DNA of 14,009 nt from a virus (lineage: Duplodnaviria; Heunggongvirae; Uroviricota; Caudoviricetes). Position 1 is the first letter of the stretch. Every line of letters begins with the position of its first letter. Where the stretch lies: the IMG/VR virus record IMGVR_UViG_2660237951_000011, positions 1 through 14,009 of that record. The stretch is one strand, 5' to 3'. This document shows, piece by piece, positions 117 to 12,565 of this stretch. Made by a program: the position numbers and the translations under genes. The notes under the pieces are model-generated. The model was given only the letters and a program-made list of their open reading frames with translations. It ran no database searches and was not told the origin of the DNA.

Positions 117-2054
117 TCAGGCGGCTGCACCCGCCTTTTGATTTGCACATAATTCAGGAAGATTTGCTTCTACCAGCGCACGAGCGAACGGCGGCGGTAC
201 TGCGTTACCACAGCGCGCTACCTGCTTGTCTTTGGCGTAACGATTGCCGCGATAGTCCTGATCGATAACGTAGCCGTCAGGGAAGCCCTGCGCCTTATAA
301 AGCTCATGCGGTTGCAGCATGCGCATTCCGATATCGACGATCTGGTACTTAACCCCCTCGATCGTCACCAGCCATTCATCCTCGCTATCACCGCAGTAGG
401 TTTCGAGGAATGTCCGGACCTCGCCAACGTGCTGGCCACCAGCGGTAATCGTCGGCATAGGTGTATCCATGGTCTGACCGTCGCGGCAGGTTCCGCGCAG
501 CTTCACCAGGTGCGACGCAACTACCGCGTGGTGATCAACAGTAGTGACTGAGTGGGCAGGCTCATCCATACCAACACCCGGCCCCGTGTAATTCCCACCA
601 TAGTGCTTCGCCAGGAACGCGCTCACCGTTGCAAACTTATTACCACCAGCAGTGACCGTGCCGAGCGGGTTATTCAGTTGAAGAACACGCGGTTCTTGCC
701 CTGGGCGTTCGCCGTACCCCATCTGGATCAGTGTTGGAGTTACCAGCTGCGACTTACCGCCACCACCTGCAGTAATCGTCGCACTCGGTTCGTCAGCCCT
801 GTGCCCAACACTGGCTCCAAACTGGCGGGCGATGACCGGCGCAACCACGCACGCGCGGGACTGCTTGAGGATTGTATGAGCGGGTTTATCCAGCGGGCGC
901 GGCTTTGCCTGGTACTCACTGCCGCCATTGCCAGCCAGGAACGGTGTCAGGGCGGCCTCAACTACGCCAAGCGCATGCCCATTCCCGCCCGGGCGCGCCG
1001 ACGTACCAGCGGTGACAGTTGGTACCGGCTCGGTCACTGGCTGCCCGGTGGCCCCGGTGCGGAATTTAGTAAGATGCGGTACCGCCAGTGCGTAGCCATG
1101 CTTTTTAGTGATGGTCTGCAATGGCTCTAACAACGATTGCCCGCGGAAACAGTCATAACCTCCTTTCGTCGTGGTGTGGTTACACTTCACGATGAAAGGT
1201 GATGCGCTTTCGATAACAAAGCGCTGGATGCCGCGCGCGATACGTTTGAGCGTATTTTCCGCCAGCGGCTTTTTGCGGTCGAAGATGGACCGGGCCGGGA
1301 TATTCCAGTCAATGCACTCCGCCGCGGTACGCCATGGCGCCAGCTTGCCGCTTTGTACTTCCAGTGATTTTGGATCCCCATGAGTCGCTTCAGGCCAATG
1401 AATCTTGCGGCCGTCACAGCGCGTGACCATGAAGAAACGCTTTCTGATCGTCGGCGCGCCGTAGTCACATGCGCGCAGCTCCCGATAATCAACCTCATAA
1501 CCAAGCCCGGCGATCAGCTGTTGCGCCTGCTGGCCGTGCGGCTCAATGGCAAGGAATTCACAAACCTCAGCCAGCGCAGGGTGATTCGCCGCGATCCCCG
1601 TCGACAGCATGCCGACAAATGCCTCGAATGTTTCGCCAGCACGCTCAGGATCTGGGCGTAATTCTTCATCCAGCAGCGGGCCCCATGTCTTAAACTCTTC
1701 GACGTTCTCCAGCATCATGACGCGGGGACGTACTGCCAGCGCCCAGCGCAGGACAATCCACGCCAGCCCGCGAATCTCTTTCTTAACCGGCTTAGCGCCC
1801 TTCGCCTTGGAAAAGTGGCGGCAGTCAGGGCTAAACCAGGCCAGACCGACAGGTTTACCGCTGGTGGCTGCGCTTGGGTCAACGTCAAACACCGACTCGC
1901 AATAATGCAGCGTGTCAGGGTGATTCGTCTTATGCATCGCAATAGCGTTTTCGTCGTGGTTGATAGCGATATCCACGCTACGCCCGATCGCCAGTTCAAT
2001 GCCGGTACTCGCGCCGCCGCCACCAGCAAAGTTATCAACGATAATTTCACGCAT
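117..2054 (-). CDS. DNA (cytosine-5)-methyltransferase, 645 aa, with greatly expanded variable (target-recognition) region
   Basis: Start moved to internal ATG at 2054 (MREIIVDNF), which overlaps the upstream gene's stop. C5-MTase motifs read in order: I FAGGGGASTG; IV SPDCRHFSKAKG (P-C catalytic Cys); VI MMLENVEEF; VIII ACDYGAPTIRKRFFMV; IX MLQPHELYKAQGFPDGY; X GNAVPPPFARAL. About 370 aa lie between motifs VIII and IX. Confidence 0.85.
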   Translation of the reverse strand: MREIIVDNFAGGGGASTGIELAIGRSVDIAINHDENAIAMHKTNHPDTLHYCESVFDVDPSAATSGKPVGLAWFSPDCRHFSKAKGAKPVKKEIRGLAWIVLRWALAVRPRVMMLENVEEFKTWGPLLDEELRPDPERAGETFEAFVGMLSTGIAANHPALAEVCEFLAIEPHGQQAQQLIAGLGYEVDYRELRACDYGAPTIRKRFFMVTRCDGRKIHWPEATHGDPKSLEVQSGKLAPWRTAAECIDWNIPARSIFDRKKPLAENTLKRIARGIQRFVIESASPFIVKCNHTTTKGGYDCFRGQSLLEPLQTITKKHGYALAVPHLTKFRTGATGQPVTEPVPTVTAGTSARPGGNGHALGVVEAALTPFLAGNGGSEYQAKPRPLDKPAHTILKQSRACVVAPVIARQFGASVGHRADEPSATITAGGGGKSQLVTPTLIQMGYGERPGQEPRVLQLNNPLGTVTAGGNKFATVSAFLAKHYGGNYTGPGVGMDEPAHSVTTVDHHAVVASHLVKLRGTCRDGQTMDTPMPTITAGGQHVGEVRTFLETYCGDSEDEWLVTIEGVKYQIVDIGMRMLQPHELYKAQGFPDGYVIDQDYRGNRYAKDKQVARCGNAVPPPFARALVEANLPELCANQKAGAAA

Positions 2055-3381
2055 TGACGGCCCCCTGCATGCTGTTGAAGAGACCACCAGCGGTCGTGAT
2101 AATTTCACTCGTCGGCATACGTTCGAGCCACAGCTGGTTGATATTGGCTTTCAGCTTGTTCTGCTGCGAAACAGGTAGAGCGTCAGCCCCTTCAATCTGG
2201 TTAAACACCAGTCCAACCTCAAGAGGCCAAACGCGCGATTCGTTTAACGCCTTGTCCTTTGATTCCTGCGTCTCACGGACATGGGCGCGGATCCCCCGAA
2301 TATTTGACCATTTGGCTTTATCCAGGCTTTCCATGGTCGCGATGAATTCACTGTGGTTAATGCCGTATTCTTTCGCAGACTCAACGGCAACCGTGCGTAA
2401 CCGCTCTGACATGTCTTGTTTCACGTCATCGCTATCAAAGGGCAATGTTTCCAGCCATGCATTAACACCCACCAGGATGCTCTCGCTGATCAGCTTTTTC
2501 GCTCTGTCGATCGTCAGCGGTGAAACATTGGTAAATTCAGGGTTTTCCAGAGAGTCGGCAGCCCAGGTATGACCAAACTTTGACTCGCTGAAGGTGTACT
2601 CGTCTTTCTTGCCGAACGCCGCGACAACACAGGCCCAAGCCTCTACACCGCTGGTTTCCAGAATGGCTTTTTGGGTTAATGGCAGTTCTGCCTCTGATTT
2701 CTCCGGCACTACCTCAGCGTCCAGCTCCGGCGCCGCATCAGTTTGCGTTCTTCCCACGGCAAATTGGGCCAGCGACATCGCAGCACGGCCTTTGGCCTCC
2801 AGGTCGGTGCGGTTGATGTAACTGAAACGCTCACCCCGCCATGTTTTGTCGAAGACCACGATAGCGCCAGCAAAAAATGCGCTGGTGGGCTGCTGCTTTT
2901 CGTCTTTCGGCACGAACCATGTAGGAAGATCGAAACCAATTCGGCCACGGATGAATGTGACGTGATCTGCCTCTACCGGCCACCACGTTTCACTCGTCGC
3001 AGACTTAATGAGAAAAACGTACCGACCACCCTTTTCTCGCATGGCCATAGCGTGGTTAATGATGTGGGTCATTCCGGTAACGGCCTGCTTGTCGTGGTAC
3101 TGAGAGCGGCTGTAAGGCGGGTTGCCAAACCCGGCACCACCGAGTTCTGCCAGCCGCTCTGACCAATCCTGCATCAGGGCATTATCTTCAGCCGTGTACC
3201 ATGCTGGGCACTTCGCGTTGCTGTCGTCGGCAAAAAGGTCCAACACCAGAGGGCCGAACATCGCATTGATCCCCCAAAACAACAGATCCGGAGTGCGCCA
3301 TTGATCACCGACCTCTTTCAACTCGTGTGCTGGTTTTGAACGGAGTTCAGCTAGTGCACGGCAGTATTTATTTTCCATCAT
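2047..3381 (-). CDS. Phage Dam-family N6-adenine DNA methyltransferase with ~250-aa C-terminal extension of unknown function
   Basis: N-terminal region DQWRTPDLLFW...LDLFADDSNAKCPAWYT...GFGNPPYSRS carries the NPPY amino-methyltransferase motif in a phage-Dam-like context. Start ATG overlaps the upstream stop (ATGA at 3378-3381). Residues ~200-444 show no motif I recognise. Confidence 0.8.
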   Translation of the reverse strand: MMENKYCRALAELRSKPAHELKEVGDQWRTPDLLFWGINAMFGPLVLDLFADDSNAKCPAWYTAEDNALMQDWSERLAELGGAGFGNPPYSRSQYHDKQAVTGMTHIINHAMAMREKGGRYVFLIKSATSETWWPVEADHVTFIRGRIGFDLPTWFVPKDEKQQPTSAFFAGAIVVFDKTWRGERFSYINRTDLEAKGRAAMSLAQFAVGRTQTDAAPELDAEVVPEKSEAELPLTQKAILETSGVEAWACVVAAFGKKDEYTFSESKFGHTWAADSLENPEFTNVSPLTIDRAKKLISESILVGVNAWLETLPFDSDDVKQDMSERLRTVAVESAKEYGINHSEFIATMESLDKAKWSNIRGIRAHVRETQESKDKALNESRVWPLEVGLVFNQIEGADALPVSQQNKLKANINQLWLERMPTSEIITTAGGLFNSMQGAVNA

Positions 3382-5144: not shown

Positions 5145-5360
5145 TTATTTCTGATCGCTTGGCGATGTATTCTTGCCATAACGTTCTGGGTTAAATTCCA
5201 GTTCACCAGCAGTTCGATACGCAGCTTCAGCAGCTCGTCCTTTTGGGATTAAGCGTCCGGGGCGGTTACGCCACTGGTAAACGGCCTCACTGGTGATGCC
5301 AAAAAATTCGGCAACTTTTTCAGTGCTGCCGAAATGTTGTTCAATCTCGTCGGTTGTCAT
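5145..5360 (-). CDS. cro: Cro-like HTH repressor (71 aa)
   Basis: Small basic HTH protein (FGSTEKVAEFFGITSEAVYQWRN) transcribed divergently from the CI repressor gene. AGGAGG lies 4 nt upstream of the ATG. A sigma70-like promoter TTGACC-17-TAATAT is on the minus strand at 5416..5388. Confidence 0.7.
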   Translation of the reverse strand: MTTDEIEQHFGSTEKVAEFFGITSEAVYQWRNRPGRLIPKGRAAEAAYRTAGELEFNPERYGKNTSPSDQK

Positions 5361-5373
5361 GAAGCCTCCTTAG

Positions 5374-5437
5374 CTAAGTTTGGTTAGATATTAATAACCA
5401 ATCTAACTTTGGTCAATAAAAACTAAGATTACTTAGT
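5374..5437. promoter_or_regulatory. OR-like operator/promoter region between cro and cI
   Basis: Three related boxes: CTAAGTTTGGTTAG (5374-5387), CTAACTTTGGTCAA (5403-5416) and perfect palindrome ACTAAGATTACTTAGT (5422-5437). The first two overlap the start site and -35 of the cro promoter. Confidence 0.6.
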
Positions 5438-5459
5438 CTTTTTTAAACTTGGTGCTTTC

Positions 5460-6086
5460 ATGGAAACGGTTGGTCAGCGCATTAAAGCCCTACGTAGGGT
5501 TACAAGAACCTCTCAAAAAGAACTGGGTAAGTTCTGCGGGGTTAGTGACGTAGCGGTGGGTTATTGGGAAAAGGATGTGAATATCCCAAACGGTGAATCG
5601 CTGGTTAAGCTGGCGAAATTCTTTAACACATCAATAGATTACATTCTTTACGGCACTGAATTTGAAGGCACCCTCATAACTAAAATGAGGCGTGTCCCGG
5701 TGATTTCATGGGTTCAAGCTGGGCAGTTCACGGAATGTAAAGCCGCTGATTTGTTCAGTGATGTCGATAAATGGGTTGAAACATCACTTCGCATTGGGGA
5801 TAACTCGTTCGCTTTAGAGGTCAAAGGGGATTCAATGACCAATCCAAATGGCCTCCCAACAATCCCTGAAGGGGCAACCGTTATTGTTGATCCAGATGCC
5901 GAACCCCTTCATGGCAAGATTGTGGTTGCGCGTCTTGATGGCACTAATGAAGCGACTGTTAAAAAACTTGTCATTGATGGCCCACAAAAATTTTTAGTGC
6001 CACTAAATCCTCGCTACCCCAACATCCCGATCAATGGTAACTGCCTCATTATTGGCGTTGTTAAAGGCGTTCAGTACGAACTCTAA
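5460..6086 (+). CDS. cI: CI-type prophage repressor, N-terminal HTH plus C-terminal S24 (LexA-like) autocleaving peptidase domain
   Basis: N-terminal HTH (TSQKELGKFCGVSDVAVGYWE). Ala-Gly cleavage site in VQAGQF. Ser nucleophile in GDSM and the Lys of the dyad in ATVKKL. Divergent from cro across an operator region. Confidence 0.9.
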   Translation: METVGQRIKALRRVTRTSQKELGKFCGVSDVAVGYWEKDVNIPNGESLVKLAKFFNTSIDYILYGTEFEGTLITKMRRVPVISWVQAGQFTECKAADLFSDVDKWVETSLRIGDNSFALEVKGDSMTNPNGLPTIPEGATVIVDPDAEPLHGKIVVARLDGTNEATVKKLVIDGPQKFLVPLNPRYPNIPINGNCLIIGVVKGVQYEL

Positions 6087-6104: not shown

Positions 6105-6169
6105 CTAAGCATCAAGCTAAGTTTAGTTTGATGTTTTCACTTGACCAGAAAACTAAGTTAAGTTAGATT
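6105..6169 (+). promoter_or_regulatory. OL/pL-like promoter and operators downstream of cI
   Basis: TTGACC (6141-6146), 17-bp spacer, TAGATT (6164-6169). The spacer and -10 overlap the near-palindrome ACTAAGTTAAGTTAGAT. Further CTAAG boxes at 6105-6109 and 6117-6130 belong to the same half-site family as the OR boxes. Confidence 0.5.
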
Positions 6170-6528
6170 TTTTTCTGTCGGCACCAAACCACCGCGCCTG
6201 ATGTGGTTAAAAGCAGGCCAAAGCAATAAGACGTGTTCCCTGTTCTGGCTGCTCACTTTCCCCTTGAGGGTGACAGCCAGCTTTTTAAGGGCACAACAGG
6301 CGAGAGCATTGCTGATTATCGGACTGCGTGAGACGCGACGCGGTAAAGCAGGTAAACAGTGCTCTCACCGTTGTGGTAATGCGGCTCTGCGCACGTGACG
6401 AGGCCAACAAGTTTTTATTTCAACTTTTGAAATGAATACGTTTCTTGTGGTGTAGCGTCGCCGGTTCTGGCCGGTCCGGCAGGTGGAGGCACCACCGCCA
6501 CAACAACATCATTGCTGTGTGTAGTCTT

Positions 6529-6557
6529 TGCCCATCACATCGGTGGGCACCTTTTTT
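6529..6557 (+). terminator. Intrinsic terminator-like hairpin inside the leader upstream of the first accessory gene
   Basis: 8-bp stem TGCCCATC / GGTGGGCA (one G:U pair), 5-nt loop, then CC and TTTTTT (6552-6557). Confidence 0.45.
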
Positions 6558-6713
6558 ACACAAGAGACAAGGGCATCACCGGGCGACGGGCTCATTCCCC
6601 AATCCACCCGGGCAAGAGGATAGCGATTGCAGTCGCCGACAAATGCAGGTGCCCTTCTCTGTTGTGTATGGAGAAAGTTCGGCGGTGGCAGCCGCCATAA
6701 CGAGGGTAAAACC

Positions 6714-7085
6714 ATGAGTAATGACCGCATGACCGTAGTGCCCGACTTTTTGGGCGAGCTGGATGCCGGTGTGTTCATGAACAAAATCGCGGCAGCACTT
6801 AACACCACCGCGCTTGGCGTTCTGAACAACGGCAACAAAGGCAAAGTAGTCCTCACCTTTGATTTTGAGCGTATGGGTAATTCCGTTGAAGAGAAGCGCG
6901 TCAAGATCAAGCACAAGCTGAACTACAGCACCCCAACTCCGCGCGGTAAAGCCTCCGAAGAGGACACAACCGAAACCCCTATGTGGGTTAACAAAGGCGG
7001 GAAGCTAACCATCCTCCAGGAGGATCAGGGGCAACTGTTCGGGATCACCGGCGCGGTGGACGGAAAGCTTAAAGCGGCTCAGTGA
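6714..7085 (+). CDS. Hypothetical protein (123 aa), first gene of the accessory operon; YfdP-like by position
   Basis: ATG at 6714 with GAGGG 7 nt upstream. The ORF-track start at 6627 has no RBS. Typical codon usage. YfdP assignment is by gene order only, not sequence recall. Confidence 0.6.
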   Translation: MSNDRMTVVPDFLGELDAGVFMNKIAAALNTTALGVLNNGNKGKVVLTFDFERMGNSVEEKRVKIKHKLNYSTPTPRGKASEEDTTETPMWVNKGGKLTILQEDQGQLFGITGAVDGKLKAAQ

Positions 7086-7141
7086 TCCGCAACAACAAAC
7101 TCACTGATACCACTTTGATCATCAGTTAATAAGGAATTTTT

Positions 7142-7969
7142 ATGTCTCAGTTAGACAGCGGCACCTTCAAGCAGGTCAAAGACCTGGTCCTTTCCGGTTA
7201 TCACCTGAATGATATTCATGGCCTGGCTTGCCCGACCGCATTACTGCCAGAGGGTACTGGCGTTGAAAGCCTTGAGCGCTTTTCTCTGGAACGTTTCCGC
7301 TTTCGTGGCGCAATGACCACAACCAGTATTGACGACTTCGCACGTTATTCTAAAGGTTATGCCAGCGCCAGCGAGCCAGCTCGTTGCTTCATTGACGCTG
7401 ACAACATGACCGCCCGTTCAGTGTTCAACATCGGCACCCTGGATAACCCCGGTCACGCCGATAACGTTGCTTCAATCACTCTGAAGAAAACCGCCCCGTT
7501 TCGCGCGCTACTACAGATCGATGGTCAGCGTCTGAAACAAAAGCAAATCGCTGAATGGCTGGAAGACTGGAGTGATTACCTGCTGGCGTTTGACGCTGAT
7601 GGTAAGACGATGGAGATTTCTCAGGCGGCTCAGGCCGTGCGTCGTATCACTATCCAACAAGCAACCCAGCAGGATCATGAAACTGGTGATTTCGCTGGTA
7701 AAAAATCACTCATGCAAAGCGTCGAAGCAAGCAGCAAAGACGTAATGCCGGTAGCGTTCGAATTCAAATGTGTGCCGTATGAAGGTCTGGGCGAACGCCG
7801 CTTTAGCTTGCGTAACAGCCTGCTGACCAGCGATGAACCCTGCTTTGTTCTGCGCATCGTCCAACTTGAAGCCCAGGAAGAAGCAATCGCCAACGAATTC
7901 CGCGATTTACTGATCAGCAAGTTCGACGGTGAATCAGTGGAAACTTTCATCGGTAACTTTAAAGCCTAA
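7142..7969 (+). CDS. Hypothetical protein (275 aa); YfdQ/DUF2303-like by position
   Basis: AGGA 7 nt upstream of ATG. No recognisable catalytic motif. Lies immediately upstream of the YfdR-like gene, as in the yfdP-yfdQ-yfdR order I recall for the CPS-53/KplE1 prophage of E. coli K-12. Confidence 0.6.
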   Translation: MSQLDSGTFKQVKDLVLSGYHLNDIHGLACPTALLPEGTGVESLERFSLERFRFRGAMTTTSIDDFARYSKGYASASEPARCFIDADNMTARSVFNIGTLDNPGHADNVASITLKKTAPFRALLQIDGQRLKQKQIAEWLEDWSDYLLAFDADGKTMEISQAAQAVRRITIQQATQQDHETGDFAGKKSLMQSVEASSKDVMPVAFEFKCVPYEGLGERRFSLRNSLLTSDEPCFVLRIVQLEAQEEAIANEFRDLLISKFDGESVETFIGNFKA

Positions 7970-7981
7970 TTGCTCTGCATT

Positions 7982-8008
7982 AAATCCCCGGCGCCGCGGG
8001 GATTTATT
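7982..8008 (+). terminator. Hairpin / possible terminator or attenuator after the YfdQ-like gene
   Basis: Inverted repeat AAATCCCCG-gcgccg-CGGGGATTT (9-bp stem), followed by ATT. Located 13 nt after the stop codon. Confidence 0.4.
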
Positions 8009-8097
8009 GAAGCGTAATTCCATTAATTATCGCCATCCGGCGAGGGATTCGTGCAACCAAAATCTGCGCGGTGCAGCGCGCCAATATGGAGAAAACC

Positions 8098-8637
8098 ATG
8101 AGCTACATTCAGACATTATCCGGCAAACACTTTAATTACCTCGATATCCAACAGGACGATATCGTCATCGAGGATATTGCTACTGCGCTGTCTCATATCT
8201 GCCGTTTTGCTGGGCATCTTCCTGAGTTTTACAGCGTCGGCCAGCATAGCGTTTTAACCAGCCATCTCGTTCCGCAGGAGTTTGCCTTAGAAGCACTGCT
8301 TCATGATGCCGCCGAAGCCTACCTGCAAGATATTCCCTCACCGCTTAAGCGCCTGTTACCGGATTACCAGGTGATCGAAGCTCGCGTAGACGCTGCTATT
8401 CGCCAGAAATTTGGCCTACCGACGGAGCAACACCCAACAGTGAAATATGCCGATCTGGTGATGCTCGCCAGCGAACGCCGCGATTTTGAGATTGACGAAG
8501 GTTCCGTGTGGCCATGCCTCGATGGCGTTGTCCCGACGGACCTATTCATCATCAATCCAGTTCGTCCAGGCCAGTCATACGGCATGTTCATAAATCGCTT
8601 TAATGAGTTGATGGAGCAGCGTCAATGCGCCGCATGA
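8098..8637 (+). CDS. yfdR: HD-domain phosphohydrolase, YfdR-like 5'-deoxynucleotidase
   Basis: HD motif visible: H-x(n)-HD in LSHICRFAGH...YSVGQHSVLTS...EALLHDAAEAYLQDIP. Strong end-to-end resemblance to my recollection of E. coli YfdR. Start at 8098 (GGAG 6 nt upstream), not the track start at 8071. Confidence 0.7.
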   Translation: MSYIQTLSGKHFNYLDIQQDDIVIEDIATALSHICRFAGHLPEFYSVGQHSVLTSHLVPQEFALEALLHDAAEAYLQDIPSPLKRLLPDYQVIEARVDAAIRQKFGLPTEQHPTVKYADLVMLASERRDFEIDEGSVWPCLDGVVPTDLFIINPVRPGQSYGMFINRFNELMEQRQCAA

Positions 8638-8801
8638 AGGTAAAAGAACTCGTGGCGGAGGCGTTTGCCTCCGTGGCTGAATTGCCACCAAAGCATGCAT
8701 CGCTTATGCGCGAAGTCGCTACCAGGCTTGAAGCTACGTTCGCAGCATTAACCGAATCATTGGCGCAACTGGAACAGGAACGTAAAGGTAAAACGCAATG
8801 A
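8634..8801 (+). CDS. Hypothetical small protein (55 aa), below ORF-track cutoff
   Basis: ATG overlaps the yfdR-like stop (ATGA at 8634-8637) and its own stop overlaps the next start (ATGA at 8798-8801). Translation MKVKELVAEAFASVAELPPKHASLMREVATRLEATFAALTESLAQLEQERKGKTQ is helical-looking. Confidence 0.45.
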   Translation: MKVKELVAEAFASVAELPPKHASLMREVATRLEATFAALTESLAQLEQERKGKTQ

Positions 8802-9052
8802 CCGTATTTGAATATCTCCAGGGCCACCCGAACGCCACCAGCGGTGAAATCGCAAGGGCGATGGGTAAAAAGACGCCAGCCGTAGCCAGCGCACTATCTC
8901 AGCTTTATGCAACAGGGAGAATTGTTAAGTCTGGCGCACGCGGTGGGATACCGACATACCGCGTCAATGATCTGCCGTTTGGATGCAGCAATAACTTAAC
9001 GCTGATATTTAACCAGCTTCTGCGAAACGTCCGCAAAGGAGCAGCCCAATGA
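8798..9052 (+). CDS. Hypothetical small protein, possible winged-helix DNA-binding fold (84 aa)
   Basis: Translationally coupled on both sides. The stretch SGEIARAMGKKTPAVASALSQLYATGRIV looks HTH-like. Confidence 0.55.
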   Translation: MTVFEYLQGHPNATSGEIARAMGKKTPAVASALSQLYATGRIVKSGARGGIPTYRVNDLPFGCSNNLTLIFNQLLRNVRKGAAQ

Positions 9053-11992: not shown

Positions 11993-12565
11993 ATGAACGA
12001 CTTAATGATTGACCTCGAATCAATGGGGAAAAAGCCAAACGCGCCGATCGTCTCAGTTGGTGCTGTCTTTTTTAACCCTCAAACAGGTGAACTTGGCCAA
12101 GAATTCTATACAGCCGTCTCGCTTGAAAGCTCAATGGATCAAGGCGCGGTACCGGATGGAGATACGATTCTTTGGTGGCTAAAACAAAGCCCTGAAGCGC
12201 GCTCAGCTATCTGCGTTGATGATGCGATGCCTATCACTGATGCACTGTCGGAACTTAGCCATTTCATTCACCGGCATGCATATAATCTCAAATACATGAA
12301 GGTCTGGGGTAACGGGGCCACCTTTGACAATGTGATTTTGCGCGGAGCTTACGAACGCGCCGGACGCATTTGCCCGTGGGAATTTTGGAACGATCATGAT
12401 GTACGAACGATTGTTACCCTCGGTCGCAGTGTTGGTTTCGATCCGAAGCGTGACATGCCTTTCATTGGCGATGTTCACAACGCCCTGGCTGATGCGCGCC
12501 ATCAGGCAAAATATGTGTCAGCAATTTGGCAGAAAATTATCCCTGCCACCAGCACCAACGAGTAA
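11993..12565 (+). CDS. DnaQ-like (DEDDh) 3'-5' exonuclease
   Basis: N-terminal MIDLESMG (Asp-x-Glu) and C-terminal HNALADARH (His/Asp) match the acidic-residue pattern of DEDDh exonucleases. Lies directly before xis-int. Confidence 0.7.
   Translation: MNDLMIDLESMGKKPNAPIVSVGAVFFNPQTGELGQEFYTAVSLESSMDQGAVPDGDTILWWLKQSPEARSAICVDDAMPITDALSELSHFIHRHAYNLKYMKVWGNGATFDNVILRGAYERAGRICPWEFWNDHDVRTIVTLGRSVGFDPKRDMPFIGDVHNALADARHQAKYVSAIWQKIIPATSTNE

Follow-up and report, generated by a model that had tools for sequence, protein, structure and literature searches.

A YfdR-like gene for a predicted HD-domain phosphohydrolase in the early-left operon of a lambdoid prophage

Our analysis indicates that the gene at 8098-8637 of the window (here the whole stretch of 14,009 nucleotides that was analysed) encodes a YfdR-family protein with a complete and strongly conserved HD-domain active site, and that it lies in the early-left operon of a lambdoid prophage. 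On balance we favour the reading that its product would be a metal-dependent phosphomonoesterase acting on deoxynucleoside 5'-monophosphates (dNMPs) and made from that operon. That the protein is an active HD phosphohydrolase is, judging from its conserved residues, a prediction in which we have much higher confidence than in dNMPs as its substrate. The dNMP reading is favoured by the homology to YfdR, the yfdP-yfdQ-yfdR synteny, an active site that matches that of YfbR, the conservation of this site, the host range and the regulation; it is weakened by the missed YfbR thresholds, the low affinity of K-12 YfdR, a Phe at the position of YfbR Trp19 and the two hairpins that follow pL.

The gene itself is ordinary and already catalogued, and its discovery has little weight: databases and papers already contain the gene under its family name, together with its place in the operon and both candidate activities. 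Its significance is that a very large phage family keeps a perfect HD site while its only studied member shows poor affinity for the presumed substrates and an unexpected binding to DnaA. Deciding which of the two activities matters would clarify yfdP-yfdQ-yfdR, a recurrent lambdoid early-left module, and the same answer would tell whether restraint of host initiation via DnaA domain I is common among temperate phages.

Gene, operon and operators

The window covers a lambdoid prophage's immunity and early region. The features on which the argument rests are as follows.

5145-5360, minus strand: cro
5460-6086, plus strand: cI-like repressor with HTH_3 and S24 peptidase domains
6114-6173, plus strand: pL-like promoter (TTGACC-17-TAGATT, 6141-6169) with two operator-like palindromes, just past the repressor stop
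6529-6558, plus strand: intrinsic terminator between pL and yfdP, stem-loop 6529-6549 with an 8-bp stem, then TTTTTT
6627-7085, plus strand: yfdP homologue, 59% identical to K-12 YfdP
7142-7969, plus strand: yfdQ homologue (DUF2303), 57% identical to K-12 YfdQ
7970-8097, plus strand: conserved yfdQ-yfdR spacer of 128 nt, with hairpin 7982-8005 (AAATCCCCGGCGCCGCGGGGATTT) and two small conserved hairpins
8089-8092, plus strand: ribosome-binding site GGAG, 6 bases 5' of the ATG of the yfdR-like gene, also kept in K-12 and ST64B
8098-8637, plus strand: yfdR-like gene (YfdR/Atu1052 branch) for a predicted single-domain HD phosphohydrolase of 179 aa
8634-8801, plus strand: small downstream ORF of 55 aa (PHROG 12248, function unknown)

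The plus-strand order is S24/HTH repressor, yfdP, yfdQ, yfdR, small ORFs, an Ead/Ea22-like gene, an Rv2179c-type exonuclease and an integrase. Besides cro, the minus strand carries a CII/YmfL-like gene, a replication initiator, a Dam methylase and a C5 methylase. The two DNA methyltransferase genes belong to the early-right operon (117-2108 and 2047-3381, both on the minus strand); one is of the Dam N6-adenine type with 444 aa, and the other has a C5-cytosine domain in an ORF of up to 663 aa.

The yfdR-like ORF has 179 codons and ends with TGA at 8635-8637. A longer version from a GTG at 8071 was rejected on homology and on the position of the ribosome-binding site: the alignment with K-12 YfdR begins at residue 1 (MSFIKT in K-12, MSYIQT in the window), and the RefSeq CDS for a 100% identical yfdR copy in E. 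coli ECONIH5 is the same 540 nt. The exact protein occurs on at least 1000 public contigs, where it is named 'HD family hydrolase' or 'phage protein'. The ATG of the 55-aa ORF overlaps the yfdR-like stop codon (ATGA), which suggests translational coupling of the two. Further upstream, yfdP probably starts in fact at M30 of its ORF, with the ATG near 6714.

Four operator-like palindromes of the form (A/G)CTAAG-N5/6-(C)TTAG were observed, two in the OR region and two in the OL region. The copies of the CTAAG-N-TTAG palindrome at 6114-6137 and 6150-6173 flank and overlap the pL-like promoter, and the two further copies, at 5371-5394 and 5420-5443, lie between cro and cI. A promoter accompanied by palindromes that are shared with the cro/cI region is the layout expected of OL/pL, and this arrangement of sequence elements supports the placement of the yfdR-like gene in a repressor-controlled early-left operon of a lambdoid prophage. 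Early-left operons of lambdoid phages are a typical place of host-interference genes. From such an operon yfdR would be transcribed together with yfdP and yfdQ.

Family placement and structure

The window protein is 63% identical to YfdR of E. coli K-12 over its full length (BLASTP, E 7e-90) and matches PHROG 318 with an E-value of 3e-96. The identification as a YfdR-like HD-domain protein, made in an earlier note on this DNA, is thus confirmed, also by the same yfdP-yfdQ-yfdR order in both genomes. K-12 YfdR (b2361, YFDR_ECOLI), encoded by the cryptic prophage CPS-53/KpLE1, has 178 aa compared with 179 and all catalytic residues in common with the window protein, and the structured spacer of about 128 nt is likewise kept. 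The two proteins nevertheless differ in 37% of their residues and their surroundings differ too: the window copy lies in an apparently intact immunity and early region with repressor, cro and integrase, whereas the K-12 copy lies in a decayed prophage, and downstream of the gene the window has the 55-aa ORF, an 84-aa winged-helix protein and others instead of yfdS, yfdT and torI.

Among solved structures, clear sequence similarity to the window protein was seen only for Atu1052 from Agrobacterium tumefaciens (PDB 2GZ4), which was matched with an E-value of 2.8e-13 by the single sequence and 6.6e-31 by the family profile. In the same structure comparison YfbR reached only 2.6e-4, and the similarity to YfbR is confined to about 40-50 residues. 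Both models of the YfbR family stayed below their thresholds: the Pfam model PF12917 gave 20.7 bits against a cut-off of 25.9, and the NCBIfam equivalog NF003009 gave 16.8 bits against a cut-off of 122. These missed thresholds, together with Atu1052 as the clear structural relative, place the window protein by sequence in a YfdR/Atu1052 branch (PHROG 318) that is a sister of the YfbR group and lies outside the YfbR group itself. The full-length homology to both K-12 YfdR and Atu1052 and the early-left context behind yfdP-yfdQ agree with this placement. In a wider view, the branch stands as a sister beside the small HD nucleotide phosphohydrolases of the YfbR/DatZ/OxsA group. An exhaustive search for the YfdR-type family returned 23,482 clusters at 50% identity (E <= 1e-3); it is therefore a very large family, and one without a Pfam model.

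The AlphaFold model built from 68 diverse sequences is of high confidence (pLDDT 96.7, pTM 0.92). A first model, built on a shallow alignment (66-98% identity), had a pLDDT of 57 and was unusable. The all-helical core and the H...HD...D metal motif are those of the HD-domain phosphohydrolase superfamily (Aravind & Koonin 1998).

Atu1052 itself is a structural-genomics protein of about 27% identity to the window protein, without an assigned function, and our literature search on Atu1052 found no paper that mentions it. We know of no member of the YfdR/Atu1052 branch with an established physiological substrate. In several family representatives the YfdR-type HD domain is duplicated in tandem (about 385-400 aa), and one representative is fused to DUF6378 (P0154, P0122, P0124, P0130 and P0169 between them); as hints to function both the tandem duplications and the DUF6378 fusion were uninformative.

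Active site

The metal motif reported in the earlier note as H...HD is real, far beyond chance, and complete in the window protein: H50 (in GQHS), H69-D70 (in LHDAAEAY) and the distal D119 (in VKYAD). The full catalytic set consists of R36, H50, H69, D70, E73, D78, K84, K116 and D119. A motif-for-motif alignment with YfbR gave the following equivalences.

Window R36-F37: YfbR R18-W19
Window H50: YfbR H33
Window H69-D70: YfbR H68-D69
Window E73: YfbR E72
Window D78: YfbR D77
Window K84: YfbR K83
Window E94: YfbR E97
Window K116...D119 (VKYAD): YfbR K134...D137 (VKQAD)

All the catalytic residues of YfbR that were looked for (R18, H33, H68, D69, E72, D77 and D137) thus have their counterparts in the window protein. 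Across 87 family representatives with 37-69% identity to the query, conservation reaches 97-100% at R36, H50, H69, D70, E73, D78, K84, E94, D119 and E126, and 84% at K116. Such conservation of the core residues argues that the enzyme is under selection as a catalyst. The one notable departure from YfbR concerns its Trp19, reportedly proposed as the determinant of deoxyribose specificity: its place is taken by Phe37 in the window protein, and 83% of the family likewise have Phe at this position.

The catalytic metal would be bound by His50, His69, Asp70 and Asp119, with Glu73, Lys84 and Lys116 aiding catalysis. Arg18 and Trp19 of YfbR have their counterparts in Arg36 and Phe37, and Asp77, which binds the 3'-OH, has its counterpart in Asp78. 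The protein has about 20 kDa and a single domain, and would be a metal-dependent HD phosphohydrolase. Removal of the 5'-phosphate from dNMPs would be its most likely reaction, dependent on Co2+ or Mn2+ and of low affinity by analogy with K-12 YfdR. As the product of a repressor-controlled operon, the enzyme would act while the phage develops lytically, its target being the nucleotide pool or a substrate that resembles a nucleotide.

DatZ of phage S-2L uses H34, H66, D67 and D119 as ligands of metal A, and K116 as well. The lysine and the distal aspartate have the same numbers and spacing as K116 and D119 of the window protein, which is a coincidence of numbering between residues that are unaligned.

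Leader and spacer hairpins

Between the pL-like promoter and the probable start of yfdP runs a leader of about 545 nt (6170-6713) with GC-rich structured stretches, blocks conserved in ST64B and the intrinsic terminator at 6529-6549, which is a strong one. A nut/put-like antitermination region and a tL1-type terminator are both possible readings of this leader. A 65-aa ORF within it (6201-6398) was considered and is probably not coding: it has no family match, and in the alignment with ST64B it carries indels that break the reading frame. Rfam, searched with the whole window, gave nothing above threshold, the matches being RprA at 6421-6558 (41.5 bits, threshold 70) and RsmY in the yfdQ-yfdR spacer (18 bits, threshold 57).

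The spacer between yfdQ and yfdR is kept in K-12 CPS-53, in ST64B and in about 17 enterobacterial prophages. Its main hairpin (7982-8005) stands directly 3' of the yfdQ stop and shows compensatory changes, with five of the eight pairs varying on both sides among 13 sequence variants; smaller conserved hairpins lie at about 8030-8045 and 8067-8080. The T tract of the main hairpin is weak (ATTTATTG). Partial termination or stabilisation of the mRNA is the probable function of this hairpin, and it may set the expression ratio of yfdQ to yfdR.

Two terminator-like hairpins (6529-6549 and 7982-8005) thus separate pL from the yfdR-like gene. The proposal in the earlier note that the gene is expressed early from pL keeps its basis in the early-left position and the operator-flanked promoter; with two hairpins to pass, the expression itself is plausible only. 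We infer that both are read through, by antitermination or otherwise.

Distribution and gene neighbourhood

The neighbourhoods of YfdR relatives were surveyed among 80 genome loci, and each one that was inspected is prophage-like. The recurrent neighbours are a repressor, a CII-like gene, yfdP, yfdQ, an rdgC-like gene, an exonuclease, a methylase and an integrase, or else Mu-like genes. The pair yfdP-yfdQ lies directly upstream of yfdR in 17 of the 80 loci, all of them Enterobacterales-type prophages. In E. coli ECONIH5 the identical yfdR stands behind a ClpX-zinc-finger gene and rdgC, without yfdQ; the link to yfdQ is therefore frequent, yet not obligatory. The family as a whole extends to temperate and virulent phages, jumbo phages included, of Caulobacter, Bacillus, Pseudomonas, Vibrio and others. 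Its spread over such hosts argues that the conserved function is catalytic and not a host-specific protein contact.

Clusters of the same three genes at the same operon position occur in ST64B (gp35-gp37), LLS (gp37-gp39) and SfV (orf29-31), and are allelic versions of the window module. In the literature the cluster already counts as a common feature of the early-left operons of lambdoid phages, with ST64B gp35-37 and LLS gp37-39 as examples (PMC12315714).

Candidate functions

The name 5'-deoxynucleotidase, which the earlier note took over as established for YfdR, is the RefSeq product name of the K-12 protein. It is only partly borne out: the YfbR thresholds were missed, and PMC4776307, in the part that cites Zimmerman 2008, describes K-12 YfdR as structurally homologous to YfbR, as binding nucleotides with much lower affinity than YfbR does, and as having a function that 'remains elusive'. 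The same functional picture was also incomplete since it left out binding to DnaA domain I, on which the sole functional study of YfdR centres. In that study the purified protein binds domains I-II of DnaA in a manner that depends on Phe46 (Noguchi & Katayama 2016, PMC4776307) and moderately inhibits the binding of DiaA and of DnaB to DnaA (PMC4776307). Multicopy yfdQ and yfdR, combined with yfdS or yfdT, suppress over-initiation and inhibit oriC initiation in the wild type (PMC4776307). The DnaA-YfdR result has been accepted in later replication papers.

One would argue from this that the window protein could be a host-takeover factor, which would bind domain I of DnaA at the Phe46 patch, compete with DiaA and DnaB and, together with YfdQ, damp initiation at oriC while the phage develops, its HD site being secondary or the protein moonlighting. 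By analogy with the K-12 protein this is a serious rival, though we regard it as less likely than the dNMP reading. It draws on the Phe46-dependent binding and on the block of over-initiation by the multicopy set (Noguchi & Katayama 2016), and the window protein has the 63% identity to YfdR and a yfdQ homologue directly upstream that such a role calls for; it also fits the host-interference theme of pL operons. However, the in vivo effect required yfdS or yfdT in addition to yfdQ and yfdR, and neither was found in the window (tblastn of K-12 YfdS and YfdT, best E 0.86). The effects were moreover seen on over-expression only, deletion was without phenotype, and a possible artefact is conceded by the authors (PMC4776307). 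The family with its invariant catalytic residues spans phages of hosts with very different DnaA proteins, and the ECONIH5 allele does without yfdQ, beside rdgC.

The protein could also be a phosphohydrolase with some other physiological substrate. This would be a dNTP, as in a DatZ-like triphosphohydrolase, a damaged or modified nucleotide, or an anti-phage second messenger. We consider this improbable. Two residues of a dNMPase site are retained: D78, the Asp that binds the 3'-OH, and R36, the Arg that binds the phosphate. Furthermore, no defence-system or signalling-nucleotide gene was linked to the family among the 80 loci, which leaves the suggestion that the enzyme counters nucleotide-based host defences unsupported. 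It could also be that the YfdR branch unites both ideas, as a dual-function takeover protein of temperate phages and not an enzyme of the dNMP pool: its surface would bind DnaA domain I and restrain host initiation in lytic growth, its strictly conserved HD site would hydrolyse another nucleotide (signalling, damaged or modified), and the balance of expression between yfdR and yfdQ would be set by the hairpin in the spacer. To this combination we give little credence.

For the dNMP phosphatase that we favour, one further observation is available from an engineered strain, in which deletion of yfdR did not raise the yield of CMP. Since CMP is a ribonucleotide, this is only weak evidence against a role on dNMPs.

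Comparison with other HD enzymes and minor observations

YfbR of E. coli, the 5'-deoxynucleotidase of PF12917 (PDB 2PAQ, EC 3.1.3.89), is the product of a housekeeping gene, whereas the window protein is phage-borne. The window protein also differs from YfbR by the Phe for Trp19 and by an extra N-terminal hairpin. Small phage HD enzymes are known from another branch, namely the dATP triphosphohydrolase DatZ of S-2L (6ZPA) and the dTMP phosphatase Dtm of DSS3_VP1. These serve genomes with modified bases, and nothing in the window suggests such a base modification. As a close relative, the HD-type dTMP phosphatase of DSS3_VP1 was rejected: the family HMM and tblastn gave no match, Foldseek gave an E-value of 0.45, and the protein belongs to the YfbR branch. 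Dmp of phage T5, from which the PHROG name 'deoxyribonucleoside 5' monophosphate phosphatase' might have come, proved to be unrelated (hhalign with the family profile, probability 0.08%, E 0.63).

The Rv2179c-type 3'-5' exonuclease, which lies at 11993-12565 in the window, recurs 3' of yfdR-like genes in 13-14 of the 80 loci (seen in L016, L017, L021 and L035) and sometimes adjoins the yfdR-like gene immediately. An exonuclease that produces dNMPs and a phosphatase that uses them could form a functional pair, or the two could merely be members of the same operon. Genes for C5 methylases were seen near yfdR-like genes in seven distant loci.

At 7267-8892 of the ECONIH5 locus (L001), the ClpX-type zinc-finger gene and rdgC replace the yfdP and yfdQ that occupy 6627-7969 of the window, and an rdgC-like gene fills that same slot in 6 of the 80 loci. 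This points to module swapping at a place where other lambdoid phages carry recombination genes. In Methylophaga thiooxydans DMS010 the same YfdR-like gene is found on five scaffolds (L055-L059), every copy being 46% identical to the window protein. Its neighbours there look Mu-like, among them genes for a lysozyme and an ATPase of MuB type, which suggests that this genome carries a transposable prophage in several copies.
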